Below, piece after piece: positions 7,008 through 54,182 of a stretch of DNA of 64,000 nt. A program made the translations under genes and the position numbers. The stretch's first letter is position 1; the number at the start of each line of letters is the position of its first letter. The notes below the pieces were generated by a model that searched no databases, had not been told where the DNA came from, and was given only the letters and a program-made list of their open reading frames with translations. Source of the DNA: Thermoprotei archaeon (GTDB lineage Archaea > Thermoproteota > Thermoprotei > Thermoproteales > B15-G16); assembly GCA_003649205.1 (NCBI GenBank), contig QMRC01000006.1, positions 39,757-103,756 of the forward strand. The letters are read 5' to 3'.

Positions 7008-7668
7008 TATGGAGTTATTGAACATGAGCAATGGCGAGGTAGCATTTGAGAGAATAATTCAAGCATTTAAGTTGGCACTAAATGAATTGATAGCACTGGT
7101 ACCTGTAGTACTAGCATCTGTCCTCATAGTTGCACTCATGCTAGTAATTGCTAAGTACGTAGGTTCTCTTGTCAAGAGGATACTGAAGGTAGTTGGTCTA
7201 GATAGGATACTTGAGAGGTACGTAGGTACACCACCGATATCTGTCGAGAACTTCATCGTCGTATTCATACAGCTGGGCTTCGTAATACTTGGCGTAACAA
7301 TATCCGTGACAGTATTCGCACCTGAGTACCTAGCTACCTACAACATGTACCTATCCTATATACTGAGGTTGATGTCGGCTGTAGCACTCATAATAATAAC
7401 GCTCTTCTGGATAGAGGTACTAGTGAATAAGATTCGTGGTGAGAGCAAGGTAAAGGCATTTGCCTCACTAATAGCCTTCCTCCTAATACTCACCTTCATA
7501 ATCGACGTAACAGCACTATCTGAAAGCGTTAAGTCATCACTCGTATTCGGAATATCCCTTGGACTTGGATTGACAATAGGAGTATTCTCCATATGGTACT
7601 TCATGCATGAATACCTTGAGCACTACATCAGCAGAAAGCATGGAGAGAAAGAGGTCAGACAAGGCTGA
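6997..7668 (+). CDS. TM-helix-repeat membrane protein (MscS/CmpX-like); its 3' end and stop codon lie in the attL core
   Basis: LVPVVLASVLIV...GSLVKRILKVVGLDR pattern; about 5 TM segments. Confidence 0.65.
   Translation: MVRSMELLNMSNGEVAFERIIQAFKLALNELIALVPVVLASVLIVALMLVIAKYVGSLVKRILKVVGLDRILERYVGTPPISVENFIVVFIQLGFVILGVTISVTVFAPEYLATYNMYLSYILRLMSAVALIIITLFWIEVLVNKIRGESKVKAFASLIAFLLILTFIIDVTALSESVKSSLVFGISLGLGLTIGVFSIWYFMHEYLEHYISRKHGEKEVRQG
7652..7668 (+). repeat. attL core, 17-bp direct repeat AGGTCAGACAAGGCTGA
   Basis: Identical to 18439-18455; adjacent to the integrase; internal dyad TCAG-6nt-CTGA. Confidence 0.92.
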
Positions 7669-7678
7669 TTGAGTTCTC

Positions 7679-8842
7679 ATGGAAGAAATCACACCTGATA
7701 GCCCTATCTATCAGGTGAGAATAGGTCTCAATTCGATGGAGTTGCTGAAGCACTTTGAGAGTTGGTTAATTGCTCAGAACCTGTCCGTGGCTACGGTTAG
7801 GTCTCATGTTAGACAGGTTAGGTCTTTCCTCACGTGGTTTGGTAGGTCTATCGAGGATTTGAGTAGTTTCGATATTGCGTGTTACCTAGCTGAGTGCCGT
7901 AAGCGTGGTCTATCTGAGGCTAGTGTGAATCGCTATGCTTCTGCTCTCAAGAAATTCCTGAGGTTCCTAGCTAGTTACTTCAGAGCTAGGAGAAGGGTTG
8001 AGTTAGCTAATTACTTTGAGCAGGTGTACCGTGAGGTCAAGGTACCTAAGTACGACCTAGTTGAGGTCAGCATTAAGCGACACATGGAGCCTGATACAGC
8101 GAGGAAAGTCATAGACTTAATTCATGACCCCTACTGGAAGTGCTTTTTCGCTGTGCTGTATGAGACAGGTCTGAGGTTGAGGGAGCTTAGACAGGTCAAG
8201 GTAAGTGATGTTCACGAGAACAAGCACGGGTTCGAGATAGTTGTCAGAGATAGCAAGACACCTGAGGGAGTTAGGAAAGTGTACGTGGTTGAGTACTATC
8301 AGCTACTGAGGTACTACCTAGAGCATGTACGTCCGAGAGATAGCGAGTGGTTGTTCCCTGCTAGGAGAGACCCAAGGCAACCAATCTCCGAGAAAGCAAT
8401 CTACAGCTTTCTAAACCGCTTCAGAAAGCGGACAGGTATCGTGATTAGTCCACACCGCTTTAGACACGCTAGAGCTACTGAGCTTTACCGCAAGGGAGTA
8501 TCTGAGCAGTCGTTAATGAGGTTGTTTGGTTGGAGGACAAGGACAATGATTGATGTCTACAGTAAGCTTTCACAGCGAGATGTGGAGTCTGAGCTACTGA
8601 GCAAGGTCTACGGGCTATCCCCTGTAGAGAGTGAGAGGTCTCAGACTCGTAAGTGCCCGAGGTGTGGTGCTGAGGTAATACCCACAGCTAGGTACTGTCC
8701 ATACTGTGGTCTAGCCCTAGATATTGCGTCAGTATTAGGCAAAGAGGAACAGGTACGGAAATACGCAGAGCTCATTGAAGCACTGCTGAGGTACCTAGAG
8801 GAACACCCAGAGTACCTGTCGAAACTATTCTCAAGGACTTAA
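7679..8842 (+). CDS. Tyrosine integrase with C-terminal zinc ribbon (SNJ2/pNOB8-like architecture); start may be ATG 7736
   Basis: YETGLR (R), DSKT (K), HRFRH (HxxR), FGW, DVY (Y); C-terminal CPRCG...CPYCG. Confidence 0.93.
   Translation: MEEITPDSPIYQVRIGLNSMELLKHFESWLIAQNLSVATVRSHVRQVRSFLTWFGRSIEDLSSFDIACYLAECRKRGLSEASVNRYASALKKFLRFLASYFRARRRVELANYFEQVYREVKVPKYDLVEVSIKRHMEPDTARKVIDLIHDPYWKCFFAVLYETGLRLRELRQVKVSDVHENKHGFEIVVRDSKTPEGVRKVYVVEYYQLLRYYLEHVRPRDSEWLFPARRDPRQPISEKAIYSFLNRFRKRTGIVISPHRFRHARATELYRKGVSEQSLMRLFGWRTRTMIDVYSKLSQRDVESELLSKVYGLSPVESERSQTRKCPRCGAEVIPTARYCPYCGLALDIASVLGKEEQVRKYAELIEALLRYLEEHPEYLSKLFSRT
7692..7717. repeat. 10-bp inverted repeat CACCTGATAG/CTATCAGGTG beside attL
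   Basis: Perfect 10-bp arms with a 6-nt loop. Confidence 0.7.
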
Positions 8843-8995
8843 AAGCGGACATGAAACACAGGCAGAGAACACCAAGACCCGCCCTATAGTCCAGAGGAAA
8901 TGTTGCCTGAATTCAACAATAGTCTAATATGCGTATACGTGTGAGTGAACAGCGAGCGAGGTAATACACCACTTGAGGATGAATAGGGGCTCCTC

Positions 8996-9064
8996 GGGGG
9001 ATGATGAAGGGCTTAGCGGAGCGACCCCGCAAGGGGGTATGGCTGGACCAGGCTAGCTGACCCC
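8996..9064 (+). ncRNA. Provirus-encoded C/D-box-like sRNA candidate
   Basis: C box ATGATGA 9001-9007, D box CTGA 9057-9060, terminal GGGG/CCCC stem, internal CCCC-GCAA-GGGG hairpin; C'/D' boxes degenerate. Confidence 0.55.
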
Positions 9065-9078
9065 TACCCCCTCGCCCC

Positions 9079-9099
9079 GTGATAATGGGTTATTATCAC
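9079..9099. promoter_or_regulatory. Inverted repeat GTGATAAT-N5-ATTATCAC next to a TATA-like TATTTAAG
   Basis: Perfect 8-bp arms. Confidence 0.45.
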
Positions 9100-9186
9100 C
9101 AATATTTAAGTTTCTATGCAATTACAGTGAAATTACCATGGTTACTTTCTCGTGAGGGGGTTTAAGAACCCTTGATACGTCTTTGC

Positions 9187-9534
9187 TTAGCCTTTCTTTC
9201 TGATTAGTCCTCCTATTGCTCCTCCTATCATTGATAGGAATGCTGAGGCTAGCATCATGAATATTATTGCTAACCCTGCTAACCCACCTGCCCATGCTCC
9301 TAGGAATCCAGCTACTGAGAAGCCTAGTACTGTCAGCACTATTGCTGCTAGTATTCCTCCAATGATTCCACTGAGGAACCCTGCTGCTGCTCCTCTACCT
9401 GCTCCTCCTCCAGCTACTAGACCTGCTATGAAGCCTCCAAGTACTGGTGCGAAGATGTGTAGTATGGGTGAGAGTACGGCTGTAGCTAACATACCTGCAA
9501 AGACACCAGCTATGAAACTCAGTACACGACCCAT
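9187..9534 (-). CDS. Gly-rich small membrane protein (DUF5518-like)
   Basis: APVLGGFIAG...GAAAGFLSGIIGG...IGGAIGG pattern. Confidence 0.65.
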   Translation of the reverse strand: MGRVLSFIAGVFAGMLATAVLSPILHIFAPVLGGFIAGLVAGGGAGRGAAAGFLSGIIGGILAAIVLTVLGFSVAGFLGAWAGGLAGLAIIFMMLASAFLSMIGGAIGGLIRKKG

Positions 9535-9804
9535 GTAGGGAAAACCCCGAGGAAACCAGATACAGAGAGGACATAAAGCAGTTCAGAACATAGAGAGCAA
9601 TGAACCTAGCAACCTCAGAGGACAGAAAACAAGAACGCTCCTCCGGTCGGTGATGAATACTTGTACTTTTCTCTCGGTGACTTTCCTCAAGGCACTAAAT
9701 AAGAAATTGCTCTACTCTACAGTGGTATGGATTCTGAGGATTTTTGGATTGGTTTTCTCCTTGGTTACAGTACTGGTCTTATTCATGCGAAAAACTTAAC
9801 AACT

Positions 9805-10188
9805 TCAGAACTTGTCTTCAGGCTCATTTCCTGTTCCTTCATGCTCAGTGAGTTGTTGGGTACTAGACTTAATGAGTTCTTCAGCTCTTTGGAGAAGTTC
9901 AGCGACTTCACGACCCTTCTCAGTGAGCTCAATGTACCTAAGACCGTGCTTGGTATACGTCCTAACAAGACCGTACTGAAGACAGGTACTGAGGGCTCTG
10001 TAAGTACTGACAGGTGAGATACCGTATCTCTGAAGTTCTCTAATGTGCATAGCTCTACCTGTTTTGTGAAGAATTAGCAGCAATTTAATTCCCGGTCTAC
10101 CTAAGTCATCAGCTAGAGCTGACATTTTCCTCTGTCGTTTTCTGGTGATAAACCTAATAACGATATCTTCGAGCATTCGTAACCTCAT
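9805..10188 (-). CDS. Winged-helix DNA-binding protein (SSV1 F93-like); start may be 10125
   Basis: ISPVSTYRAL...GLV...RYIELTEKGREVAE wHTH signature. Confidence 0.75.
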   Translation of the reverse strand: MRLRMLEDIVIRFITRKRQRKMSALADDLGRPGIKLLLILHKTGRAMHIRELQRYGISPVSTYRALSTCLQYGLVRTYTKHGLRYIELTEKGREVAELLQRAEELIKSSTQQLTEHEGTGNEPEDKF

Positions 10189-10199
10189 TCTCAGTCTAT

Positions 10200-10286
10200 A
10201 CCCGATTTAGAGGTATCACGTAATAATATTACAACGCTATATCTCGAAACTGATAAATTGTTATAACGTTACAGAGTTGTAACAGG
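10200..10286. promoter_or_regulatory. Divergent promoter/operator region between the wHTH and RHH genes
   Basis: Dyads GTAATAATATTAC (10220-10232), GTTATAAC (10260-10267), GTTAC-N6-GTAAC (10268-10283). Confidence 0.55.
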
Positions 10287-10484
10287 GTGAGAGAGGTGCC
10301 TAAGAGTAAGGTGCCTATGGTCTTGGTTACCTTCCATATCCCGATACCACTCCTTAGAGAACTTGACAGGTTGGTGGAGGAGGGTAAGTTCCCGAGCAGG
10401 AGCGAGGCGATAAGGCACGCAATAATCCAACTCCTAGCTCGTGAGCGTCAAAGAACACAAATACACGAGGTGTTGGTAGCGTGA
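10287..10484 (+). CDS. Ribbon-helix-helix (CopG family) regulator
   Basis: VTFHIP..LLRELDRLVEEGKFPSRSEAIRHAI. Confidence 0.88.
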   Translation: MREVPKSKVPMVLVTFHIPIPLLRELDRLVEEGKFPSRSEAIRHAIIQLLARERQRTQIHEVLVA

Positions 10485-10729
10485 CCATTGTCAACTATGT
10501 CGAGGTAATTAGGAACATCATACTCAATGCTTTGAAGGAGCATGGCTACATTAGTGACCTAGAGCTTGTTAGGGCTGTCAAAGAGGCTACGGGACTCAGC
10601 TACGTAGACTTTGCTCCCATTCTTGAGCAGGTACTGAGTGAGCTAATGAGGTCTGGCGCAATTAGACGTGTAATGTCAGCAAGCAACCCGAGAAAGGTCG
10701 AGCATGGGTGGGAGCTGTGTACACAATAA
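10481..10729 (+). CDS. Small putative wHTH viral protein
   Basis: Overlapping stop/start (GTGA); LSELMRSGAIRR motif. Confidence 0.55.
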   Translation: MTIVNYVEVIRNIILNALKEHGYISDLELVRAVKEATGLSYVDFAPILEQVLSELMRSGAIRRVMSASNPRKVEHGWELCTQ

Positions 10730-11073
10730 AGCCGAATGGATTCTACCTCAGGTTGGTTTTGGATGCACTGAAGTACTGTGCTAGGACTGAAAGAGGCTCT
10801 ATTGTGTCTATTTACCCAAAGAAAGTCGCTAAGTTAAATGGGTACAGTGTTCGTGCATGTGGGAGGTATAGAGATGACAGTGAGGTAGAGAGGTCGCTAT
10901 CCCCTGCCGAGCTATCTATCATTAGGTACTGGCTGGATTACCTCTGGGTCAATGGGCTGTGTAGCCGTGAGAAGACTAGTCGTGACAGGTGGAACTACGT
11001 ATTCCCGAGGGAGAACTTGCCTAAGGCTATCAAGCTACTTGAGGAGGTGCTCAATGGTGAAGTACAAGATTGA
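10708..11073 (+). CDS. Hypothetical viral protein
   Basis: ORF within a tightly packed operon. Confidence 0.6.
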   Translation: MGAVYTIKPNGFYLRLVLDALKYCARTERGSIVSIYPKKVAKLNGYSVRACGRYRDDSEVERSLSPAELSIIRYWLDYLWVNGLCSREKTSRDRWNYVFPRENLPKAIKLLEEVLNGEVQD

Positions 11074-11194
11074 GGAGATAGTCAAGGAGTTGAAGGTTGC
11101 TCTCAGGGATAGAGAACTCAGAGAAGCATTGCTGAAGCACTTCTCCAACAACCCAAAGGCTCAAGCAATCATACTACTCCTGTCAGGTGAGTGA
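11054..11194 (+). CDS. Small hypothetical viral protein (MVKYKIEE...)
   Basis: GAGGAGGTG RBS before ATG 11054; stop overlaps the next start. Confidence 0.55.
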   Translation: MVKYKIEEIVKELKVALRDRELREALLKHFSNNPKAQAIILLLSGE

Positions 11195-11433
11195 GCATGA
11201 TTGAGCTGAGTTTCAAGACGAAGCGGGACTTCGATAACTGGGTTAAGGCGCTGTATGACTTCGGTTCGAATCACTGTGTTGAGCCTGTCGTCATCAAGCT
11301 AGATGGTAATGACCTCTACGACAGGTACATGGTCTGCATTGTGTACCATGCTTGGACTGAGGAAGGTGCTTACGCAGTGACCTGTCTAGCCCGCATAGTA
11401 GCGATAGTGTACAGGGAAGGTGAGCAGAAGTGA
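11191..11433 (+). CDS. Hypothetical viral protein
   Basis: GGTGA RBS; coupled starts and stops. Confidence 0.55.
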   Translation: MSMIELSFKTKRDFDNWVKALYDFGSNHCVEPVVIKLDGNDLYDRYMVCIVYHAWTEEGAYAVTCLARIVAIVYREGEQK

Positions 11434-11612
11434 GTCGCTACCACGGGCACAAGGTAACTATCACGATTATTGCGACAACAGGTTCTGGACTACCGACAGG
11501 TGAGCGAAAGAGCGATTTCATTAGATTCATGGTCGAGCAGGTACTGGAACGTGAGCTTTCTAAGAGGCTCCGTGATTTCCGTGTCCTCAAAGTCATGGTG
11601 AAGGTGATGTAG
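11430..11612 (+). CDS. Hypothetical viral protein
   Basis: GGTGA RBS; coupled start. Confidence 0.5.
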   Translation: MSRYHGHKVTITIIATTGSGLPTGERKSDFIRFMVEQVLERELSKRLRDFRVLKVMVKVM

Positions 11613-11691
11613 ATGGTTCCTGCTACTACTACCTATTCTATTTCTAGTAATTCGTTTAGACAAAATACGCGGGACATTAAACGCGGTTCAG

Positions 11692-11816
11692 ATTGGAACC
11701 AATGTTCCCTCTCAGAGGAATCATTGAAACCAATCATTGGAATCAATGTCAGTGGTATGATTGGAACCAATGATTGGAACCAATCATTCCACTCGCTTAG
11801 TCTCATTGGTTCCAAA
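11692..11816. repeat. Cluster of six ATTGGAACCAAT-type dyad repeats
   Basis: Copies at 11692, 11723 (1 mismatch), 11736 (1 mismatch), 11760, 11773 and inverted at 11805. Confidence 0.85.
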
Positions 11817-11827
11817 AACGGAGAGAG

Positions 11828-12151
11828 GTGTTGAGTATCCCCCGAATAACTATCTACATCCATGAGAGCGATTGGGAAAAGCTGACGAAAATAGCTGAGC
11901 AGAGAGGACAATCAATGTACAGCATAGTGAAGCAAGTAGTACTTGAGTTCCTGAAGCTAAGTAACCCAATTGTTGCTCATGGTAAGCTTTCTAGGGATTT
12001 AGCTACCTGTCGGAGCATTATCAAGCGATTTGGTTGGTGTGCTCTCTGCATACATGCTGAGGTTGTTGGTGATAGGTTAGTCTGCAGAAAGACAGGCAAA
12101 GTCATAGAAAAACCCATATGGCAATGCCCACACCCCATACCCAAGGTGTAA
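11828..12151 (+). CDS. RHH protein with C-terminal Cys/His zinc-binding motif
   Basis: RITIYI...WEKLTKIAEQRGQSMYSIVK; CALC.H...C...C. Confidence 0.7.
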   Translation: MLSIPRITIYIHESDWEKLTKIAEQRGQSMYSIVKQVVLEFLKLSNPIVAHGKLSRDLATCRSIIKRFGWCALCIHAEVVGDRLVCRKTGKVIEKPIWQCPHPIPKV

Positions 12152-12160
12152 ATCATGCTT

Positions 12161-12184
12161 TTTACACAGCTGCAGCTGTGTAAA
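12161..12184. repeat. Perfect 24-bp palindrome TTTACACAGCTGCAGCTGTGTAAA
   Basis: Read directly; further GTGTAAA-like half-sites at 12146, 12190 and 12207. Confidence 0.85.
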
Positions 12185-12227
12185 TGATTTTTACTCACTG
12201 ACAGGTGCGTAAATTTGGTGAGAATTC

Positions 12228-12596
12228 ATGTCCGAGATGGAGAAGTTAATTAGGAACCTGAACATACTGCGAAACTACTTCAGCAAGGTACCACCTGAAG
12301 TCATTGAGGCTCTCATGTACTTTGAGGATAGGTTCTTCACTGAGAAATACCATGTTGTTCGCTCTAAGACAGGTAGGGAGTATCGCTACAGGTACCTCTA
12401 CATCAGGTTGAATGACTACAGGACACTAGGTTACTTCAGGATAAATGATAGCAATGATGAATTGCTGCTACACGAAATTAGGCAGGTCAAGGCATTTTCA
12501 CAAGCACTACTACAGTACATAGCAATGCTCAGACACAGCAAACTAGCAAACCTCACCAAAATTTACTCAAGGACCTTGAGTAAAAACAACCAATAA
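12228..12596 (+). CDS. Hypothetical viral protein
   Basis: GGTGA RBS; basic/aromatic KTGREYRYRYLY segment. Confidence 0.6.
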   Translation: MSEMEKLIRNLNILRNYFSKVPPEVIEALMYFEDRFFTEKYHVVRSKTGREYRYRYLYIRLNDYRTLGYFRINDSNDELLLHEIRQVKAFSQALLQYIAMLRHSKLANLTKIYSRTLSKNNQ

Positions 12597-12657
12597 CACA
12601 TCAGCAATTGGGGAAATTGAATTGGGGTGATGCCCCCTGAACCTCAAGGTCTATTTC

Positions 12658-13644
12658 GTGAAGAAAACTAGGCAATACGAGGTCTATGAGGGCTCTAGGA
12701 GAATCCTCAGGACTAAGGTACATGCAAAAGCTCACGAGTACCTATCGAAACAAATCAATTCAAGTTTTGAGTTCTACTTTGTTTGTTGCAATAGGGAGCA
12801 CCTGTTAGCATGTTCACGTTTCTTTGAACTCACAGGTCGCAGGCTCAATGTGTTGATTAGTTACAACTTCATACGTGACAGGTACCTCACACAGGTGCTT
12901 CAGCAAGTTAGACCACACCTAAGCAAAGTCATGATTGATTCAGGTGCTTTCCATGTACTTATCCGCAAGGTACCCCTGGAAAAGTTCCAGAGCTACATAG
13001 GTGAGTACGTGAATTGGCTCAACAACCACACAGAGCTTTACGACTACTGTGTCGCACCTGACGTACCCTGTGATGAACGACCCGCAGAAAAAATCCAGAA
13101 ACTACCAAACAGGTACAAGATAGAGCTAACCATAGCTAACACAGTTCACTGGATAGATAGGTTGACAGACCCTCGCAAGGCTGTGGCTGTAGTTCAGGGT
13201 TATTTCGTGAATGAGTACCTGCTCTGTGCTGAGAAGCTGAAAGAACTCGGGCTCACAACAGCAAAGACAGGTGTCGGCTCTTTATGTGTCAGGAAATACA
13301 GTAGACAACAAGCACGTGAAGTACCACAGATACTAGCTAGCATAAGACAGGTCTTACCGTCATGGGTGAAACTTCACGCATTCGGTCTTCAGCTAGATTT
13401 CTTACCGACCTGTCTCAAGTACCTACACAGCTCAGACAGTGCCTCATGGCAATTAAGTTACTCAAAGTTCAATAGGATACGAATAGCGAACCTGTCGACA
13501 GGTCAAACAGTTGAGCTTGATTTAGTTAGTCATGGCGGAGCGAGGAAAAAGAACCTAGACCAAGTCACGATATACACATACAACCTCTTAGCCTACTGGA
13601 ATAGAGTTCAGCAACTAACGAGACAGGCAGCACAGACAAAATAA
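12658..13644 (+). CDS. TGT/DpdA-like guanine transglycosylase (putative 7-deazaguanine DNA insertion enzyme)
   Basis: Ordered TGT-fold motifs IDSGAF, APDVP, VVQG, GVGSL, LHAFG, SSDSASW. Confidence 0.75.
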   Translation: MKKTRQYEVYEGSRRILRTKVHAKAHEYLSKQINSSFEFYFVCCNREHLLACSRFFELTGRRLNVLISYNFIRDRYLTQVLQQVRPHLSKVMIDSGAFHVLIRKVPLEKFQSYIGEYVNWLNNHTELYDYCVAPDVPCDERPAEKIQKLPNRYKIELTIANTVHWIDRLTDPRKAVAVVQGYFVNEYLLCAEKLKELGLTTAKTGVGSLCVRKYSRQQAREVPQILASIRQVLPSWVKLHAFGLQLDFLPTCLKYLHSSDSASWQLSYSKFNRIRIANLSTGQTVELDLVSHGGARKKNLDQVTIYTYNLLAYWNRVQQLTRQAAQTK

Positions 13645-13663
13645 AGTAAGTGTTGAAAACTGC

Positions 13664-14428
13664 TCAAGTCCCCATGTTCTCTATCTCATGTCCTGTAGGG
13701 TATAGGTTCAGTTTCTTTATGTACTTGTACACTGTTTGACGTGAAACACCGAGTGCTCTAGCTATATCACTTATACTGTAACCTTTCTTCAACATATCCT
13801 CAATAGTCTTCTCCCTATTAGCAGTCTGGATAGCTACCTGTAAGTCCATGAACACCTTCTCAACAAAGAGCCTCCTCATTTCCTGATACTTCACATAGAT
13901 GTCGTGGTCTAGCTTAGGCACGAAGGTATCTACACCAATTTCCTTCACCACGAACTTACCCGTAGGAGTCCACGTAAACCTGTAGATGTGTGCCTCTCTC
14001 TCACCTTGCTTACTCTTCCTAATGTGTACATGTATCCAACACATCTCACGTAGTGCTCTTAAGAGCAGGCGATAGGTAGGTACCGTGAATATGACAGCAC
14101 CTGTCACAGTCCTAGCAACCTCAAGGAACTTTACAAATAGCTGACGGTCTTCTTTAAGAAAGTCATATTTGCTTATCCACACACCAGCATCATCATAGCA
14201 CAGACACTTAACACGCTTACGATACCTAAGACACTCCCTAATAATTGGGAAAGACTGCTTAACATCGAAGAATACGTAGTTGAGAGCAGTCTCCCTACAA
14301 TACAGCTCACTCAAGACCTTGATAGCGTAGGTAGTCTTACCAACCCCTTGCTGACCCTGAATAACAATAACCTCAAATCCATTGTTCCTGAAAGCACGCT
14401 CAATTATCTTAGTTAGGACAAACGGCAT
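13664..14428 (-). CDS. P-loop ATPase similar to fusellovirus B251, with C-terminal HTH
   Basis: GQQGVGKTTYAIKV, YDDAGVWISKY, ARTVTGAVIFTVP resemble SSV1 B251 as I recall it; SISDIARALGVSRQTVYKY HTH. Confidence 0.8.
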   Translation of the reverse strand: MPFVLTKIIERAFRNNGFEVIVIQGQQGVGKTTYAIKVLSELYCRETALNYVFFDVKQSFPIIRECLRYRKRVKCLCYDDAGVWISKYDFLKEDRQLFVKFLEVARTVTGAVIFTVPTYRLLLRALREMCWIHVHIRKSKQGEREAHIYRFTWTPTGKFVVKEIGVDTFVPKLDHDIYVKYQEMRRLFVEKVFMDLQVAIQTANREKTIEDMLKKGYSISDIARALGVSRQTVYKYIKKLNLYPTGHEIENMGT

Positions 14429-14431
14429 ACC

Positions 14432-14734
14432 TCACTCCTCCTCAATCTCCTCCTCACGACCAACAGGTATGAACCTCTTACGACCCATTACATGCGTTAT
14501 AGTCCTGAAGAACTTAGCAAACGATAGCAGAGCTGAGTAACCACGACCGCCCTCAGCTAACCTCAACTCAAGGTAAGGTATGATGAATGAGTCTCTCAAG
14601 TCCTGAAGGTTGTACCTGTCGCATATGAAGAGCAACGTAGCTATCTTACGAGCCTCACCATACTGCAACCTAGTTAAGCGAAGTATGTTCCCCGAGGTAA
14701 GAGCCTCAATTAGTTCCTCTGACATGAGCCTCAC
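14432..14734 (-). CDS. Hypothetical viral protein
   Basis: GAGGTGA RBS; operonic. Confidence 0.6.
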   Translation of the reverse strand: MRLMSEELIEALTSGNILRLTRLQYGEARKIATLLFICDRYNLQDLRDSFIIPYLELRLAEGGRGYSALLSFAKFFRTITHVMGRKRFIPVGREEEIEEE

Positions 14735-14735
14735 C

Positions 14736-15191
14736 TCACAGGTGAATGATACCGAACTTCACGAGCATGAACATGATGTACGCACCTATGATTAACCCAC
14801 AAATCAGAGCAATGATGACAGGAGTAGCCCTAACAGGTACCTTCTCCGTTAGCAGAGCCCTCAGTACCTGTCCCTTGATAATCTGCGATATAGTGTCACT
14901 ATCAATGTAGGGGTCTTGATATTGACCACAGAAGTACACTATCTTTCTGACAGGTGCCCACACCTTCACGTCTCTAAACACCCTAACCCTACCCCCAGCA
15001 AGCACCAGCTTCCTCTCCGGATTGAGCAATTTAGCAGGCGTAATCTCGACATGCTTATCGTTCACGATAATAGCTATGTGCTTTGACCTGAAGATACGTC
15101 CTTCAGGTCTCGCTAGGAACATCATGATGAATGTGACAGGTATAGCTACGCAGTATATTGCGACTAGGATAGGGCTCAACATAGGGCTCAC
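14736..15191 (-). CDS. Viral membrane protein (N- and C-terminal TM)
   Basis: Two hydrophobic termini; operonic. Confidence 0.65.
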   Translation of the reverse strand: MSPMLSPILVAIYCVAIPVTFIMMFLARPEGRIFRSKHIAIIVNDKHVEITPAKLLNPERKLVLAGGRVRVFRDVKVWAPVRKIVYFCGQYQDPYIDSDTISQIIKGQVLRALLTEKVPVRATPVIIALICGLIIGAYIMFMLVKFGIIHL

Positions 15192-15713
15192 CTACAGAGT
15201 CTTCTCAGCTTCAGCAATGAGCTTGTTCAGGACCTGCTCAACCCTCTCAATTCGCTTAGCTAACTCACTGAGCCTATCCTCACTATGATTTGAGCCTAGC
15301 TTACTCACGTCGATAGCGTCTAGGAATATCGAGAGCGGAACAGCAATAGCGTACTCAAACCTCTCAACCTTACCACTCTGCTCGACAGGTATCGTAACTT
15401 GCTGAGCCTCCCTCTCCCTCACCAAAATCAGAACACGGTCAGGATTCCTAACCGCAGAGACAGGTAGCTTAGACAGGTACGGTCTCCTACCTGTCTCACT
15501 TTCGGACGTGTACGGTCTACCTCTCTGAAAGTGAAGTACTAAGCACAGAGCACCGAGACTAGCTAGAGCAATGAAACCAACCCACTTCAGCGTAAAGACC
15601 GCTCCAGAGGATATCTTAGCAGTCAGTGGTGACAGGTATGGGTCATACCAAATCAAGTACATGACTGCACCTGTGAGCAGTGCTGTGCTCAGGTAAAGGA
15701 AACGAGTACTCAC
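15192..15713 (-). CDS. Viral membrane protein with C-terminal coiled coil
   Basis: Two N-terminal TM segments; GAGGTGG RBS. Confidence 0.65.
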   Translation of the reverse strand: MSTRFLYLSTALLTGAVMYLIWYDPYLSPLTAKISSGAVFTLKWVGFIALASLGALCLVLHFQRGRPYTSESETGRRPYLSKLPVSAVRNPDRVLILVREREAQQVTIPVEQSGKVERFEYAIAVPLSIFLDAIDVSKLGSNHSEDRLSELAKRIERVEQVLNKLIAEAEKTL

Positions 15714-15838
15714 TTACAACCCACCTCACTTATGTAAACTTTTTCACAAAAACCATAAGGTCAACTTGCGAGATATCCTGAATAATCACTGAACACGGAG
15801 CAAACCTGAGACAGGTCGAAAAGTAGGAGGTGAAGTAG

Positions 15839-16198
15839 GTGGACATAGACCTAGGGAACATCCTGAGAGCTGTCCTGTTTGTAGCCCTAATACCCACGCT
15901 ATTCGGAGCTATAGCTGGATTCGTTGACCCTTCACTACAACCAATGATACAGCCCCTACTCAGCCTAGTACCAATGCTCATAATCCTCAACCTAATCAAA
16001 GACCTGTTCTCAGAAGCTGGAGCAAAGGGATTCGTCAAGATATTCGATATCCTACTGCTCGTAATGATGTTACCTGTCCTAATCAACATGTTCGGAGCAG
16101 CCACAGGACAAAACGAAGCACTAGCACAAGTCTCAGGACTCCTACAGCAACTCCTACCAATCCTACTATTCATCAAGCTCATCGAAGAGATGGTTTAG
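15839..16198 (+). CDS. Putative major capsid protein with two tandem SSV1-VP1-like helical hairpins
   Basis: Strong RBS AGGAGGTGA; repeats VALIPTL...LLSLVPMLII and VMMLPVL...LLQQLLPILL. Confidence 0.62.
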   Translation: MDIDLGNILRAVLFVALIPTLFGAIAGFVDPSLQPMIQPLLSLVPMLIILNLIKDLFSEAGAKGFVKIFDILLLVMMLPVLINMFGAATGQNEALAQVSGLLQQLLPILLFIKLIEEMV

Positions 16199-16219
16199 TT
16201 CCTTCGAGGTGATTAAGCT

Positions 16220-17974
16220 ATGAAACCCAAGCCCCTTTTTGCAATCTTAACAGTACTCACTCTAGTGCTCATAGTGGCGGTTGTTAATGCTGGTGAGTAC
16301 ACGCTATACGATGTACTTCAGTACGCTCATGAGGTACATGTCTTCGGAAAGACATACAACACAGCAAGTTATGGCACCACAACTTACTCTGGGACATGGA
16401 ATCTAACTGATGTTGTGTCGGGGAGGAAAGTTACATTTGGCTACAGGCAATACCTACAAGACCCAGATAGCTCCGACACAATCGTTATTGTGTTTCAGAA
16501 GAATACAGCTATCGAGGTCGGTACTGGTAGCGGGAAGTGTGTCTACGGTAAACCTGTCGTAATTACGTATGATACTGAAACAGGAAGGAGGACTATGTAC
16601 TACATTGATGGCGGTGAACTGAAGAAAGTAGGTGAATTCACTGGTGGTACCTACGTCTACTGGAACGGTACAAAGTTATGTCAAGCACTACGTTTCAAGG
16701 ACTGGTTAGATTTCCACAAGTTCTTTAACAACACATGCATGTTAATACTCCCAGACATCACGACATACGACTACAGGATAATTGATGGGTCTTCCGAGCT
16801 ATTAAAGGATAAGTGTGGTGGAAATGGTTTCCACACCCTCATTATCTTCGGTGGTGAGTACCTAAACAAATCGATAATTGTTGAAGTTGCTGGAGCCTAC
16901 GGAATCAAGAACATAACGCTCACTACAGAACTCAACACAGTCTACACGATTGACCCAAAGCACTTGAAGTTAGCTGTGTTCACAGGTAACCTAACGGAGA
17001 CGCTATCGAGGGCGAGCCAGAGCACAGAGGAAAGTACACAGGAAAGTACAACTAACACGACAAACGAGACCTCAACACCAACCACAGCACCAGAGACGAA
17101 GGTGTACAAGGTCACGATACATGTCTACGATGTGGATACCAATGAGGAAATCACATCAGCAATGGTTAAGGCGGGTTGGTTCACGAAGACAGGTTCACCT
17201 GTTACCTTTGAGTTCAAGTGGAAGGAACCACAGTGGTTACCTATCTCAGCTAGTGCTACAGGTTACAAGTCCTTCAGCACAACTATCTGGGTCGATACCA
17301 ACATGACGCTGTGGGTAGGGCTAGTCAAGGAAACCTCGAACAGCACCGAGCAATACAGTAAATTACTGAGGCTCGGTGTCTCAATTGCGGGTGTTGGTTC
17401 AACTCCATATTGGGCTCAGGAAAACAAGACATTCACAGAGTGGGCTAATGAGGTTGAGCAGTTACTATCCTCATCACAGGCTCCTGAGGTTAAGTATGAG
17501 ACTACGTGGTATGGTTTGAAGATAGTCGCTGTGAAGGTACCTTCAGGTAGACCAGCATACGGAGTAGCGACTATTGTCGCTGTTAAGAAAGGATTTCTCG
17601 GTACCCTAACATGGGAAGAAGAACTCGGTACTGTGCAAATAGTGAATGGTACGGGTTATTTCCATGTTGACTACGAGACAATCAAGAACAAGCTACAACT
17701 CAAAGAGTGGGGAGGGGAGTACTTCTACGGTTTCAAGATTGTATGGAAGGTCGGTGACCTAGACCCAGAGGTCGAGGTTGTACCTGTCAAGAATACATGG
17801 ACGCCTGTCTACATTCAGGTGAATGAGCAGACAGGAACCTACTCAGCAACAACACTACCACAGACAGCATTAACGAATGTCGGAACATCACTAACACAGA
17901 TGCTCATAACCCTACTACCACTGTTCATCATATTCGCACTCATTGGAGCTATTACAGGTCGTAGAAGGCGATAG
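16220..17974 (+). CDS. Secreted, membrane-anchored virion spike/adsorption glycoprotein
   Basis: Signal peptide, many N-x-S/T sites, Thr/Glu-rich linker, C-terminal TM followed by RRRR. Confidence 0.7.
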   Translation: MKPKPLFAILTVLTLVLIVAVVNAGEYTLYDVLQYAHEVHVFGKTYNTASYGTTTYSGTWNLTDVVSGRKVTFGYRQYLQDPDSSDTIVIVFQKNTAIEVGTGSGKCVYGKPVVITYDTETGRRTMYYIDGGELKKVGEFTGGTYVYWNGTKLCQALRFKDWLDFHKFFNNTCMLILPDITTYDYRIIDGSSELLKDKCGGNGFHTLIIFGGEYLNKSIIVEVAGAYGIKNITLTTELNTVYTIDPKHLKLAVFTGNLTETLSRASQSTEESTQESTTNTTNETSTPTTAPETKVYKVTIHVYDVDTNEEITSAMVKAGWFTKTGSPVTFEFKWKEPQWLPISASATGYKSFSTTIWVDTNMTLWVGLVKETSNSTEQYSKLLRLGVSIAGVGSTPYWAQENKTFTEWANEVEQLLSSSQAPEVKYETTWYGLKIVAVKVPSGRPAYGVATIVAVKKGFLGTLTWEEELGTVQIVNGTGYFHVDYETIKNKLQLKEWGGEYFYGFKIVWKVGDLDPEVEVVPVKNTWTPVYIQVNEQTGTYSATTLPQTALTNVGTSLTQMLITLLPLFIIFALIGAITGRRRR

Positions 17975-17977
17975 AGC

Positions 17978-18280
17978 ATGACTAACCGCTACGTCTACCT
18001 TGGAAAGAAAGTGAAGGACATAGGCAAGAAAGGACTAGACCGACCAAGCGAGTACCTAGCAATAGCGAGAGCTATAGCACAAGACTACAAGGCTGGTAGG
18101 ATAAGTAAAAAGACTGCTCACGGACGCTTTTTACTACTTTACAGGCTCGTGGATAAGAATAGCAAGCTGAAGGTACCTAAGTCAGTTAAGGAACGTCTCA
18201 AACGCAAGATTAAGGAAATCTGGATGAAGACCATTGGAGGTGGGAAGGTGGCTCGAAAGAGGAAAAGAAAGAAAAGGTAG
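17978..18280 (+). CDS. Highly basic putative virion DNA-binding protein
   Basis: Very high K/R content; last gene of the structural operon. Confidence 0.6.
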   Translation: MTNRYVYLGKKVKDIGKKGLDRPSEYLAIARAIAQDYKAGRISKKTAHGRFLLLYRLVDKNSKLKVPKSVKERLKRKIKEIWMKTIGGGKVARKRKRKKR

Positions 18281-18438
18281 GCTCAAGTCACATCACCTGT
18301 ATGTCGCTCTAACTACCTAATTTCTTGAGCTTGCTCTAGTCCTCAAGAATTCTTTACACATGTCTCATGTCCTGCGACCTGTCACCTAGACCTGAACTAG
18401 CTCAAGACAGAAGGTGGGTGACTTCTCTCAACTTATTT

Positions 18439-18455
18439 AGGTCAGACAAGGCTGA
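18439..18455 (+). repeat. attR core, 17-bp direct repeat
   Basis: Identical to 7652-7668. Confidence 0.92.
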
Positions 18456-18490
18456 ATTCTTCACGGATCTGCCTCGCCTGGGCTCATCAT
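18442..18490 (-). ncRNA. C/D-box guide sRNA (predicted 16S rRNA helix-27 region); integration target of the provirus
   Basis: ATGATGA-gcccaggcgagg-CAGA-tcc-GTGAAGA-attcagccttgt-CTGA; guides complement conserved archaeal 16S CGCCUGGG and GCAAGGCUGAA. Confidence 0.88.
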
Positions 18491-18534
18491 AAAGCAGCCA
18501 ATTACCTACTCTCGAGACCCTCTAATAAAGATCA

Positions 18535-19293
18535 CTAATCAGCAATCACATACCTAACCTCACCAGTGAAGCACCACTCACTCTCATCACTACGTTTGAG
18601 ATCCACATCTACACACTTCTGCTGAAGATACAGTATTAGTTCTCGACTCGGGATTGCCTCACTAGGTAGTGAATCAAGAACACGTCTATACTGTACAGCT
18701 ATGATTCCATCGAAGTACTTACTTAGCTCCTCAACTGACTCAACAACCTTACTCTCTGGAATTAACTCAATACCGAAGAGGATGTAAGCAATGAAGCTAA
18801 CCTCATCACCATAAACTTCACGACATTTCTCCCTAAGAGCATTCAACCTCACAATCTCACTCTGAGGAATACCCTTACACAACACAGCATTTCTCAGGTA
18901 CTCATCCCAAACCTCAATACCAACCCTAATAACGAGCCTACTAGGTTTAAGCAGCTCAAGCACCTGTCTCACAGAGTCAAAACTTAGGTACTCAGGTCTA
19001 GACTCAATATCCACAATTCTACCACAGGTAAATCTAGAGAGCTTGAGCACGGTATCCAGAGGTAGCTCAAAGAATGAACCACCATTAAATACAGTAATTC
19101 TCTCAATACTAAACCTCAGGGTAGCATCTTCCAGAAGCGACAATATCTTGTCATTTGTCTGAATTACATCGGATAGTGAGTTACCTGCCTCAAGGAAGAA
19201 GGGACAGAAGACACATCTACCCCAACGACATCTAAATCCCTTGAGTATCACGATAGCTCTCTTCCTAGATCTCTCAATCACAACACCTAGCAC
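18535..19293 (-). CDS. Radical SAM protein, RaSEA (archaeosine lyase, TIGR01210)-like
   Basis: CRWGRCVFC, FNGGSFF, DIESRPEY, VGIE motifs. Confidence 0.72.
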   Translation of the reverse strand: MLGVVIERSRKRAIVILKGFRCRWGRCVFCPFFLEAGNSLSDVIQTNDKILSLLEDATLRFSIERITVFNGGSFFELPLDTVLKLSRFTCGRIVDIESRPEYLSFDSVRQVLELLKPSRLVIRVGIEVWDEYLRNAVLCKGIPQSEIVRLNALREKCREVYGDEVSFIAYILFGIELIPESKVVESVEELSKYFDGIIAVQYRRVLDSLPSEAIPSRELILYLQQKCVDVDLKRSDESEWCFTGEVRYVIAD

Positions 19294-19990
19294 TGAGAAT
19301 CTCCCTCAAACCACTAATTAACTTACTCAAACTAGTTGGAGTTATGAGTATGAGATCTGGATCATCGTAGTAACCACCTAGAGATACCTCATCAAGCTCA
19401 TGAGGAGGTACCTCATTAACTCTCGCAGCTAAGTTCTTAACCTCAATACCTAGCATGGAACAAGCACGCTCTAGAGCAGCATAGCTATCTGAATCCCACC
19501 TTAGATACGACACAAAGCACTCATAATAACTCCTAAATCTACTCAGGAACAATCTCAATCTCTCACAGGTAACCTCCCTATAGAGTACCTTCACTTCACT
19601 AGTTTCATACTTAGGATTCCAGTCATACGCACAATAGGGGTAGTACTCTTCAAGCTCTCTCGGTACGATACCGGCATTCGTTATAATGACTTGATGAATA
19701 TCCTCGTAGTACCTACCTAACGACTTCAAAGCCCTAATTATGAAGTAGTGTATGTAGGATTGAGAGTACGGCTTACCGTAAGCACATGGTAGGAAGAGAC
19801 AGACTCTATACCTCTTCCTTGGCTTCCACTCAGTTAGTAATCTCTTAAAACCCTCTTCAAAGAATGGGTGCTTAAGGTACCTAAGACCTACACCTCTGAG
19901 GAATTCCCTACCATCACCAGACCAGATAAGTTCGTGACCATCCCAAATAACGTACAAGCTAGATCCCTCAAGAAGTTCTCCACAAACCAA
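19274..19990 (-). CDS. Stand-alone DUF5591 (ArcS catalytic-domain-like) protein
   Basis: FLPCAYGKPYSQSYIH, GIVPRELE..YP...YD motifs. Confidence 0.78.
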   Translation of the reverse strand: MVCGELLEGSSLYVIWDGHELIWSGDGREFLRGVGLRYLKHPFFEEGFKRLLTEWKPRKRYRVCLFLPCAYGKPYSQSYIHYFIIRALKSLGRYYEDIHQVIITNAGIVPRELEEYYPYCAYDWNPKYETSEVKVLYREVTCERLRLFLSRFRSYYECFVSYLRWDSDSYAALERACSMLGIEVKNLAARVNEVPPHELDEVSLGGYYDDPDLILITPTSLSKLISGLREILSARCCD

Positions 19991-53387: not shown

Positions 53388-53597
53388 ATGGCCAAGCTCA
53401 AATGCCAACACTGTGGCTACGAATTCGAGATCACTGAAGATGATATCGATGTAGATGCCTCTGTTGAGGAATTATCAGGAGAAGTAGCTACGATAAGTCT
53501 AACAGTTAGAGTACCTTGCCCCAAGTGTGGTAGAAGGGTACTGTACTATGTTGACACAATAGAAGTACCGATCAAACCAGGTAAAGTGGTTAGATAA
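53388..53597 (+). CDS. Small zinc-ribbon protein
   Basis: CQHCG...CPKCG. Confidence 0.65.
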   Translation: MAKLKCQHCGYEFEITEDDIDVDASVEELSGEVATISLTVRVPCPKCGRRVLYYVDTIEVPIKPGKVVR

Positions 53598-53723
53598 GTC
53601 ACCAAGCAAATCCCGCTAAGTAAGGAGAAAGCTTGATTGTTTAAAGGTGTGCAGTTAGTTGATTCAAAATGGAGTTGAGGGAGGAGAAAAAGTGGGTTGA
53701 GTTATTACCCGTATCATTCTTTA

Positions 53724-54182
53724 TCATTCTTTCCTTTCTTCCTTCTTCTCACTATTTCCATTCATAGCTACGTTCTCTAATAGAGCTACTCTAAATGCTT
53801 CAATTGCTGATATTCCTCTCCCTCTACCTCTCGTATGGGATATTGCTGTTAGAATTAGTTCTCTAGCTCTATCAGGTGCTGACTTAGCTAGGTACCAAAT
53901 CATCATGGAGGCATCTACATAGTACCTAAGTACTCTCGAGACCTTCCTCTTAGATACCCACCTATCTACTTCAGCCTTTATTATACCAGCCTTAACTAGC
54001 TTCTTACAGAAGTGAGCAGCCCTCAGTATGTTTCTCTGCGTTTTCTCCAGATCTGTATAGTTTAGGAGGGATTTTGCCCTAAAAGATACCTTTGCTCCTC
54101 TAGCATCTCGTATTATACCAATCAATGCTTGGGCTAGTTCTTGCTCTATCTTATACCTCCCCAACCTATCATCCTCCACCAA
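53724..54182 (-). CDS. Hypothetical protein
   Basis: ORF coupled to mtnA. Confidence 0.55.
   Translation of the reverse strand: MVEDDRLGRYKIEQELAQALIGIIRDARGAKVSFRAKSLLNYTDLEKTQRNILRAAHFCKKLVKAGIIKAEVDRWVSKRKVSRVLRYYVDASMMIWYLAKSAPDRARELILTAISHTRGRGRGISAIEAFRVALLENVAMNGNSEKKEERKE

Follow-up and report, generated by a model that had tools for sequence, protein, structure and literature searches.

A 10.8-kb mobile element apparently integrated at the 3′ end of a C/D box guide sRNA gene in a Thermoprotei archaeon

The ends of small stable RNA genes are classic targets of site-specific integration, and archaeal viral integrases of the SSV1, SNJ2 and pNOB8 types typically use tRNA genes. Archaeal C/D box sRNAs, another class of small RNA, are bound by L7Ae, Nop5 and fibrillarin and guide 2′-O-methylation. 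Among the closest described systems are the pNOB8-type, SNJ2-type and AvPV1 integrases, whose gene stays intact beside attL and whose short core lies at the end of a stable RNA gene, so that the host gene is rebuilt; for the thalassapleovirus AvPV1, the part of the source available to us gives 27-nt repeats, one of them overlapping a tRNA-Gly gene. The SSV-type integrases are described, in the available portion of the report (PMC7253208), as having their attP within the integrase gene, so that integration splits that gene. The accessible text of a 2021 review of archaeal tyrosine recombinases names tRNA genes, intergenic sites and protein-coding genes as targets, and within that text there is no mention of sRNA, snoRNA or non-coding RNA. 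In bacteria, prophages found in small RNA genes (ssrA/tmRNA, ffs encoding 4.5S RNA, sRNA loci) follow the same principle of a core at the end of a conserved ncRNA gene, with a 27-nt core in the partial account of the ffs case; a 2026 survey attributes 13.5% of RNA targets to ncRNAs and 11.7% to tmRNA, the words sRNA and snoRNA being absent from the portion available.

The locus described here resembles the pNOB8-type, SNJ2-type and AvPV1 systems in gene order and in the rebuilding of the host gene, but its target is a C/D box sRNA gene instead of a tRNA gene end, and no tRNA was found in the window, by which we mean the whole 64-kb stretch of DNA that was analysed. It differs from the SSV type in that the integrase is whole, the core lying 10 nt upstream of the gene, and from the bacterial prophages in concerning another domain of life and another class of RNA. 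We consider it highly probable that a 10.8-kb mobile element has integrated site-specifically at the 3′ end of a C/D guide sRNA gene, and that landing in an sRNA gene is characteristic of the integrase lineage, no peculiarity of this one site. No description of archaeal integration into C/D sRNA genes was found in the literature consulted, and the comparison points to the C/D sRNA gene as a landing site undescribed before for archaeal mobile elements. The features that define the insertion are the following.

6997–7668, plus strand: host membrane-protein CDS with a weak MS_channel_1st_1 match; in the empty site the 3′ ends of CDS and sRNA overlap
7652–7668: attL core, 17 bp; plus strand, last codons and stop of the CDS; minus strand, displaced copy of the sRNA 3′ end
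7669–18438: integrated element body; insert plus one core, 10,787 bp
7679–8842, plus strand: Xer-like tyrosine integrase of 387 aa, zinc ribbon at the C-terminus; intact, starting 10 nt after attL
18439–18455: attR core, 17 bp; minus strand, part of the intact sRNA (10 D-guide nt, the D box, 3 nt beyond)
18490–18442, minus strand: C/D box sRNA, 49 nt from box to box, with C, D′, C′ and D boxes and two 12-nt guides
18523–18529, minus strand: TTTATTA, a TATA-like motif preceding the sRNA; host DNA, not affected by the insertion

The 17-mer AGGTCAGACAAGGCTGA occurs as an exact direct repeat at 7652–7668 and 18439–18455, with a spacing of 10787, and is the sole 100%-identical direct repeat of at least 17 nt within 7400–18700. 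It has only these two copies in the window even when up to two mismatches are allowed, and two or more matches were obtained in none of 100 shuffles. Its plus strand at attL encodes the final five residues (..EVRQG) and the TGA stop of the ORF 6997–7668, and its minus strand spans 10 of the 12 D-guide nucleotides, the D box and 3 nt beyond. This double reading of the core, as the end of a convergent CDS on one strand and as most of the D guide, together with the D box, of a C/D sRNA on the other, had been proposed in a preliminary description of this DNA, together with a TCAG-N6-CTGA dyad inside the core; the coordinates, the translation and the dyad all agree with it. The GC content of the element (0.44–0.47) barely differs from that of the flanks. 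In sequencing run X1, probably from the source sample, contigs span the two junctions of the integrated form, and those of run X2 provide only short pieces over 7300–18800 and bridge neither junction. No joint between the two cores, of the kind that an excised or circular form would give, was present over 7300–18800 in the contigs of either run, in which rare forms are invisible. The only contig joints, 7779>7924 and 8246>8641, were rejected as excision signals since they derive from a paralogue on contig C2 described below. The core had no match in viral contigs of public collections; its 57 matches in public metagenome contigs, none in an sRNA context, were all discarded as chance or unrelated.

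An empty site is present in G001, a genome of the same genus, where the CDS end and the sRNA overlap and the core is present once. The core edges are precisely where homology to the window ends on either side, the element side being without similarity at either junction, and the site has no homology to the element body 7669–18438; with the sRNA as query, the match stops at query position 102, which is window base 18439. Over the 110 nt shown, the left flank hardly differs from the window, and the right flank is similar with scattered differences, as judged from the alignment by eye. The empty arrangement that had been predicted for a related genome, a CDS end running directly into the rest of the sRNA, thus exists, and the locus combines end repeats, an integrase at one end and a relative's empty site with a single core. 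Since the element carries an identical core, attR reconstitutes the complete sRNA downstream of its putative promoter on the host side and attL restores the end of the CDS, and neither gene is damaged; the comparison with G001 bears out the earlier proposal that the CDS is left intact at attL and the sRNA at attR. The TTTATTA motif, which is also present in G001, is the putative sRNA promoter.

The sRNA itself has the following parts, all on the minus strand.

18490–18484: C box AUGAUGA
18483–18472: D′ guide, 12 nt, GCCCAGGCGAGG
18471–18468: D′ box CAGA
18467–18465: spacer UCC
18464–18458: C′ box GUGAAGA
18457–18446: D guide, 12 nt, AUUCAGCCUUGU
18445–18442: D box CUGA

All four boxes of the canonical C/D sRNA claimed in the preliminary description were recovered at these positions: an RUGAUGA C box lies near the 5′ end and a CUGA D box near the 3′ end, with D′ and C′ boxes between them, two guides of the usual length near 12 nt and, at 49 nt box to box, a length in keeping with the usual range of about 50–60 nt. 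The region was matched at E ≤ 0.01 in nine other genomes of the 41 searched, the genome under study (G000) included, and of the 11 related loci examined, 9 have every box in its place. Three families of the order share the D′ guide; conservation of the D guide extends over the same genus and genus g8. In all three families the four boxes stay 12 nt apart as here, and the flanks and internal spacer are variable. No curated C/D family of Rfam matched at its gathering score (the best, sR5, reached 20.7 bits against a gathering score of 40), which is expected because these families are defined by other guides; 17 of the 20 sub-threshold matches were nevertheless to C/D families and lay on the strand of the sRNA. 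Detection relied on our own box pattern instead of a curated model, and this strict C/D-architecture pattern gave 149 matches in the 2.07-Mb genome against 0–1 in five shuffles. The sRNA genes occupy about 0.3% of the genome, and therefore a chance overlap of the att core with an sRNA is not expected. Among the pattern matches listed, CAGA recurs frequently as D′ box (by eye, uncounted).

Both guides had been claimed to match the conserved helix 27 region of 16S rRNA, with the +5 rule pointing to the G after the GCAA loop, and both statements hold on the 16S rRNA of relatives, from which all pairing values given here were obtained. A guide of this class is expected to show complementarity of at least 8 bp to rRNA or tRNA, the targeted nucleotide being the fifth one paired counting from D or D′. 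The D guide pairs with GCAAGGCUGAAA in the 16S of the related genome G039 through ten Watson–Crick pairs and one G–U pair. The D′ guide pairs with CGCCUGGG in relatives over eight contiguous positions, 21 nt upstream of the D-guide target, the three positions adjoining D′ being unpaired. No 16S gene is present in the host assembly (Rfam SSU search of the genome and blastn with a relative's 16S) or in those of G001, G022 and G028. A better D′ target was sought in five genomes with the complement of the 12-mer, one mismatch being allowed, and among the matches listed none had the sense orientation within the G039 rRNA region; the search gave many chance matches in GC-rich genomes.

The integrase is a tyrosine recombinase with a catalytic domain bearing the R..HxxR..H/W..Y residues and an N-terminal SAM-like core-binding domain (Pfam Phage_integrase 3.4e-24, Phage_int_SAM_1 1.8e-13, Zn_Ribbon_1 1e-7). 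Its best solved relative is XerA, with which both domains align (structure 4a8e, 4.9e-17), and the R, HxxR and Y motifs (GLRLRE, HRFRHARAT and IDVYSK) align to that structure, a W replacing the H that precedes the tyrosine in XerA. The 387-aa ORF is not interrupted by attP as in the SSV type. The chromosomal dif recombinase XerA is distinct from these enzymes: the XerA-like genes of 284–308 aa form a separate clade with 99% support, whereas the element integrases have a C-terminal extension, which in the window protein contains the zinc ribbon. The closest viral matches, in Geoglobus and Archaeoglobus pleomorphic proviruses, share 26% identity over 95% of the length. No relative was found in viral contigs, and the two found in a public genome contig collection are the same sequences as loci L104 and L120 of the survey below.

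A second site in the same genome is informative about the target. Contig C2 carries at 53486–54781 a 1.3-kb decayed sister element that matches window 7665–9081 at 72–89% nucleotide identity and includes an integrase pseudogene with 70–88% protein identity to the window integrase. This remnant begins directly after the CTGA D box of a different C/D sRNA. Contig C205 of G001 offers the corresponding empty site, in which the same sRNA gives way to host sequence of no relation to the remnant, homology ending with the D box. The C2 sRNA overlaps no CDS, the stop of the convergent gene in the empty site lying 4 nt past the D box. A second att copy for the C2 remnant was not found.

The preliminary description had suggested surveying the att sites of integrase homologues. 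At E ≤ 1e-22, such homologues were found in 26 of 120 genomes of the class, and 11 of the 25 mobile-element loci with a readable 5′ side, class-wide, lie at the 3′ end of a C/D sRNA, eight different sRNAs being involved. In seven of the 25 an sRNA obeying the strict pattern stands in sense orientation with its D box 7–59 nt upstream of the integrase, and across the class homologous mobile-element integrases lie 44–59 nt past the D boxes of other sRNAs; the four others, associated with sRNAs by other criteria, are the window, L120 (an sRNA 3′ half at the contig start), L135 and L134. A degenerate sRNA at L106 was kept outside these 11, and 13 of the 25 loci have no recognisable sRNA; distal sRNAs were absent from the eight such loci searched for them. 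The probability of a sense sRNA within 60 nt by chance is 0.0022 per locus, which gives a binomial P (at least 7 of 22) of 4e-14, a value that overstates independence given that the loci are related and many contigs truncated. No tRNA was found within 600 nt upstream in any of 27 loci scanned, nor an sRNA beside any of six short XerA-like control loci. The proposal that the integrase exploits a guide sRNA as attB is thereby strengthened, through the sRNA of the C2 remnant and the homologues at six further sRNAs.

Two complete elements are flanked by direct repeats consisting of the D guide and D box of one sRNA type, named after genome G089. In contig C7 of that genome, the repeat TTTCTGGTC(G/A)CTGAG stands at positions 342 and 9016 of locus L124 on either side of the element, and in G084:C17 the full sRNA lies at about 13.79 kb and the copy of D guide and D box, beside the integrase, at about 31.41 kb. 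The G089-type sRNA is present in 7 of 15 other genomes searched, including two complete genomes with only XerA-like matches elsewhere. The G030-type sRNA was recovered in four of five genomes of the same genus with homology ending at the D box, and the G080 assembly contains contigs of both sorts, with the sRNA followed by the element or by other sequence. On this comparative evidence the target sRNAs are host genes. Integrases 78–84% identical stand at different sRNAs, and different elements or element ends at the same sRNA. A second att copy was not found in L095, L096, L097, L025, L125 and L126, a 9-mer repeat in L095 having been rejected after inspection. In L086, L088 and L102 a GGTCAG near the junction resembles the antisense D box of the window plus CC; as the second junction is absent, these loci were left uncounted.

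The window site alone cannot tell which of the two overlapping genes is the target, for the core doubles as the end of the CDS, whose last five residues and stop it preserves, and attB sites in protein-coding genes are known in archaea according to the consulted part of the 2021 review. That attB would be the protein gene end, with an incidental sRNA overlap, is nonetheless very improbable: on C2 the sister remnant abuts the D box of an sRNA that overlaps no CDS, the convergent stop of the empty site coming 4 nt later, and the feature shared by the other sRNA-associated loci is the sRNA 3′ end, with no protein gene in common. We give marginally less credit still to the idea that the box pattern at 18490–18442 is a decayed or fortuitous C/D-like sequence and the att site a plain intergenic or CDS-end site. 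The missing Rfam family, the variant CAGA D′ box and the D′ pairing limited to 8 bp in relatives' 16S would fit it, but boxes and 12-nt spacings have been kept in three families while flanks and internal spacer vary, both guides match one 16S region 21 nt apart with the D guide pairing over 11 positions, and the pattern, in which CAGA is a frequent D′ box, is almost absent from shuffled sequence.

The sRNAs at the other loci might instead be cargo of the elements, the window being the only true sRNA attB. This would accord with L107, L109, L104, L112 and L120, where one junction is on the contig and the second att copy was not found, and with the fact that homologous elements share almost no other genes, which makes their borders hard to set. 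We hold it to be unlikely, if less so than the two preceding readings, as homology between occupied loci and loci with other sequence downstream stops exactly at the D box for the C2, G030-type and G080-type sRNAs, the G089-type sRNA is present in genomes without the integrase and also forms the direct repeats of two complete elements, and similar element ends lie at different sRNAs and different element ends at the same one.

In the preferred reading, integration at the sRNA gene as such, the Xer-like integrase would catalyse exchange within the 17-bp core, whose dyad may supply the overlap region together with its two half-sites. Excision into a circle would bring a TATA-like CTTATTTA from the right end of the element to within about 30 nt of the integrase ATG, on its upstream side, and the integrase promoter may be assembled only in the circular form. 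As to why sRNA genes would be chosen, the guide is fixed by pairing to rRNA, the D box is invariant and the family has more than 100 members per genome; together these properties would provide stable and numerous landing sites, as tRNA gene 3′ ends do for other integrases. A broader proposition, which we advance tentatively and at slightly less than even weight, is that a whole Thermoprotei clade of Xer-like mobile-element integrases lands in C/D sRNA genes by recognising the D guide plus D box module, with easy retargeting, and may act as a motor of sRNA mobility. Similar integrases at different sRNAs and different elements at the same sRNA would mean that retargeting among the 100-plus sRNA genes is easy. 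If so, each integration duplicates a guide and D box module, and may drive sRNA mobility, duplication and 'composite' guides as in Pyrobaculum.

The C/D sRNAs of Pyrobaculum were grouped into 110 families by Lui et al. (2018; PMC6009581), the available part of which presents a 3′ antisense overlap with protein genes as a common category, states that 40 of 47 such overlapping guides keep their targets and that dual guides usually target sites less than 100 nt apart, and mentions integration, viruses and integrases 0 times. That category corresponds to the layout of the empty site here, with the sRNA 3′ end antisense to the CDS 3′ end. Methylation-guide sRNA genes would thus constitute a new class of attachment site in archaea beside tRNA genes, a few protein genes and intergenic sites, and would tie mobile-element biology to the unexplained mobility and duplication of C/D sRNA genes. 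Targeting of sRNA genes would explain how such elements escape tRNA-anchored provirus finders in hyperthermophilic Crenarchaeota, and offers a concrete way to delimit many unannotated elements; a small thermophile integrase with a 17-bp attB would also be a defined pair for recombination work.

The nature of the element is suggested by its other genes, among which the following stand out.

9805–10188, minus strand: putative winged-helix transcription regulator (phrog_12817, 1.5e-6)
10287–10484, plus strand: ribbon-helix-helix (CopG-like) protein (Pfam RHH_1, 4.1e-9)
12658–13644, plus strand: DpdA/queuine tRNA-ribosyltransferase-like protein (Pfam DpdA, 2.8e-6; phrog_1279, 4.1e-11)
13664–14428, minus strand: DnaA-like AAA+ ATPase with C-terminal HTH, fusellovirus B251 type (phrog_5484, 5e-41)
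16220–17974, plus strand: protein of 584 aa; signal-like segment at the N-terminus, stretch rich in Ser/Thr, hydrophobic anchor at the C-terminus

The element had been called a provirus. Its site-specific insertion stands, on the repeat and the empty site, and its viral identity is plausible, with no capsid hallmark found: Pfam and PHROG returned none of the structural hallmarks of Fuselloviridae or pleolipoviruses (VP1/VP3-type capsid proteins, VP4-like spike or fusogen). The 584-aa protein, a candidate virion or envelope protein, has no Pfam or PHROG family and no similarity to the VP4-like protein of GacPV1, nor does a 119-aa protein resemble the VP3-like protein of that virus; a protein atlas search gave scores below its own bar. 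The element is probably a provirus or virus-derived, a reading suggested by the DnaA-like ATPase of fusellovirus type, by small membrane proteins and by a large secreted protein with an anchor. The ATPase, the only protein shared with the fuselloviruses, matched 72 phage-collection records by tblastn, 57 of them Sulfolobus spindle-shaped viruses, at no more than 35% identity. Apart from the integrase, the ribbon-helix-helix protein is the sole gene common to some of the homologous elements (tblastn: L127–L129 and L131).

Exactly two copies of the 17-bp core AGGTCAGACAAGGCTGA are present in the 64-kb window, one at 7652-7668 (attL) and one at 18439-18455 (attR), a count that is unchanged with two mismatches permitted, and at least two matches were obtained in 0 of 100 shuffles. 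An independent repeat scan returned it as the sole perfect direct repeat of its length in 7400-18700, the two copies lying 10,787 bp apart. At attL, the plus-strand reading of the core encodes the end (..EVRQG) and stop codon of ORF 6997-7668. The attR copy comprises the 3'-most 10 nt of the D guide, the D box and 3 further nt of a gene with complete archaeal C/D box sRNA architecture. The positions assigned to the core, the sRNA boxes and the CDS end in the preliminary description were correct.

Features of the target sRNA, in 5' to 3' order
Minus strand, from 18490: C box, AUGAUGA
Minus strand: D' guide, 12 nt, GCCCAGGCGAGG
Minus strand: D' box, CAGA
Minus strand: spacer, UCC
Minus strand: C' box, GUGAAGA
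Minus strand: D guide, 12 nt, AUUCAGCCUUGU
Minus strand, 18445-18442: D box, CUGA

An empty site had been predicted for related genomes, and one is present in the same-genus genome G001. The match of G001 to the sRNA region ends at window base 18439, and base-by-base comparison shows the CDS end running into one core copy and the remainder of the sRNA without interruption. Judged by eye from the alignment, the CDS-side flank is nearly identical to the window over the 110 nt compared, and the host sequence past the sRNA resembles that of the window apart from differences here and there. At neither junction does G001 resemble the 10.8 kb that the window carries between its two cores. Because the empty site has one core and no similarity to these 10.8 kb, the element boundaries are set at the 17-bp repeat. 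The core is identical at both ends and insertion rebuilds both host genes, the sRNA and the CDS. As read from G001, the 3' ends of the sRNA and of the convergent CDS overlap in the undisturbed chromosome, an arrangement that a Pyrobaculum sRNA survey describes as common for the sRNAs of that genus (PMC6009581). No excised form of the element was found in the contigs of two sequencing runs. The host gene just past the sRNA (19274-19990) carries DUF5591.

In an Rfam search of the site no family reached the gathering score; of the 20 weak matches around it, 17, mostly full length, fall on the minus strand and belong to C/D box families. The sRNAs were detected with a strict C/D box pattern devised for this analysis, which matched 149 sites in the host genome (31 contigs, 93.8% complete) and 0-1 in shuffles; C/D sRNA genes are abundant, yet represent only ~0.3% of the genome DNA. 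The same box architecture is found in 9 of 11 related loci compared, the D' guide being kept in three families of the order and the D guide within the host genus and genus g8; the flanks and the internal spacer are variable among these loci. The host 16S was searched for in its own assembly and not found, and guide pairing was read on the 16S of relatives. On that of G039, the D guide forms 10 Watson-Crick pairs and one G-U with GCAAGGCUGAAA, and the fifth pair is the G following GCAA, the nucleotide to which the preliminary description had applied the +5 rule. The D' guide forms only 8 contiguous pairs, with CGCCUGGG, 21 nt upstream of the D-guide target. Both target sequences are found in the 16S of another relative, G002, after removal of rRNA introns. 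As far as sequence can tell, the sRNA is real. In the G002 16S gene (L021), two insertions, presumably the rRNA introns, flank the micro-exon AGGCTGAA, which is exactly the D-guide-paired sequence. On host contig C3 (291,428 bp), outside the window, each plus-strand C/D pattern match has an identical minus-strand partner, the paired coordinates adding up to 291,429; C3 seems to equal its reverse complement, a pattern suggestive of an artefact of assembly.

Contig C2 of the host genome, outside the window, carries at 53486-54836 a 1.3-kb remnant of a sister element that matches window 7665-9081. Its integrase pseudogene (one TGA, two TAG) is 70-88% identical to the window integrase, and its integrase-proximal end lies directly after the CTGA of a second, different C/D sRNA in the same orientation as the integrase. 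G001 has the remnant-bearing version of this site on one contig and an empty version on another; in the latter, homology ends at the D box of this second sRNA, past which lies the end of a convergent HTH gene.

Integrase homologues were found in 26 of 120 genomes of the class at E <= 1e-22. The preliminary description had pointed to their sites, and sRNA 3' ends do recur there, with a further sRNA in the host genome itself. The tally covers 25 mobile-element-type loci with a readable upstream side; at 13 of them an sRNA was not recognisable.

sRNA at mobile-element-type integrase loci
7 loci: strict-pattern sense sRNA, D box lying 7-59 nt upstream of the start codon (six loci at 44-59 nt)
1 locus: the window itself
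1 locus (L120): sRNA 3' half at the contig start
1 locus (L135): sRNA 3' end, long internal spacer
1 locus (L134): antisense copy of D guide and D box
1 locus (L106): degenerate C' box

The expectation of an sRNA by chance is 0.0022 per locus, for loci that are mutually related. The short XerA-like genes, a clade of their own at 99% support, had an sRNA at 0 of 6, and a tRNA was present within 600 nt upstream at none of the 27 loci scanned, which do not include three loci added later. The sRNA-associated loci involve eight different sRNAs; integrases sharing 78-84% identity are found at different sRNAs, and sister genomes carry different element ends at one and the same sRNA. To judge from these loci, the pairing of integrase and sRNA is many-to-many and sRNA targeting is a trait of the integrase lineage. 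The target sRNA of L135 (G084, contig C23) separates its D' and C' boxes by ~46 nt, where 3-6 nt is usual, and this spacer may be an insertion scar.

Two further complete elements were delimited in related genomes. That of G089 (contig C7, ~8.7 kb) is bounded by TTTCTGGTC(G/A)CTGAG repeats, and that of G084 (contig C17, ~17.6 kb) has the same geometry as the window element: a complete sRNA marks one end, and a D guide and D box copy lies by the integrase at the other. Of 15 other genomes searched, 7 have the G089-type sRNA, among them complete genomes without the integrase; the sRNA type of G030 is present in 4 of 5 congeners, where homology does not extend past its D box, and the G080 assembly holds occupied and alternative contigs that have the sRNA in common. 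By this distribution the target sRNAs are host genes. At L143 (G022, contig C7, at ~52.9 kb), the sequence after a G030-type sRNA looks like the left end of an element (gtgaagag..ctttataag); no integrase above threshold was found in G022, and this locus may be another decayed element.

No description of a C/D box sRNA gene as an integration target was found in full-text searches of the literature, and 'box sRNA' was absent from the papers listed there for integration terms. Targets named in a 2021 review of archaeal tyrosine recombinases are tRNA, intergenic and protein-coding, and the words sRNA, snoRNA and non-coding RNA do not occur in it; the Pyrobaculum survey (PMC6009581) makes no mention of integration or viruses, and a 2026 provirus-border survey gives 'ncRNA' targets only as one lump. 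Integration at tmRNA, 4.5S RNA and sRNA loci has precedents in bacteria. Integration at a C/D sRNA gene is, on the genomic evidence, well supported as a real finding.

The tyrosine recombinase of the element (387 aa, intact) starts 10 nt past attL and comprises Phage_integrase, N-terminal SAM-like and zinc ribbon domains. It aligns over both domains with the Pyrococcus XerA structure 4a8e (4.9e-17), and its arginine, HxxR and tyrosine motifs line up with those of XerA. Unlike SSV-type integrases, its gene is unsplit and the core is external, and it is therefore not of that type. The closest viral integrases, from Geoglobus and Archaeoglobus pleomorphic proviruses, share 26% identity.

The integrase would perform strand exchange inside the core, which holds a TCAG-N6-CTGA dyad; at the G089 and G084 element junctions, a more extended dyad, GTCGCTGA-N7-TCAGCGAC, takes in the D box. 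The stability of the site would come from the D box, which is invariant, and from the guide, which is constrained by rRNA. A TATA-like region upstream of the sRNA lies in host DNA and is kept in G001, and in the circular form of the element the TATA-like CTTATTTA (18432-18439) would be placed ~30 nt ahead of the integrase ATG.

Other products encoded by the element
Two ribbon-helix-helix proteins
Winged-helix regulator
12658-13644: DpdA / queuine-tRNA-ribosyltransferase-like protein
DnaA-like ATPase, fusellovirus B251 family (phrog_5484, 5e-41)
Small hydrophobic proteins
584-aa protein with signal-like N-terminus and C-terminal anchor

The DnaA-like ATPase matches 72 records, 57 of which are Sulfolobus spindle-shaped viruses. 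Relatives of the 584-aa protein were looked for and none was detectable. Since a search of the element proteins found no structural virus hallmark, the element is likely, rather than demonstrated, to be a provirus. The DpdA / tRNA-guanine-transglycosylase-like protein hints at 7-deazaguanine modification of the element's own DNA. The 65-aa ribbon-helix-helix gene (10287-10484) has paralogues at 56-72% identity in the host genome, on contigs C2 (~207,400-207,560), C28 and C17, and is also found in elements of an integrase subclade without visible sRNA target. Within the element, 11690-11815 holds a cluster of TTGGAACCAATGATT-like motif copies, direct and inverted, possibly an origin or an array of regulator-binding sites, and the motif GACAGGT(A/G), scattered over 7800-17800, recurs in many of the element's short direct and inverted repeat families.
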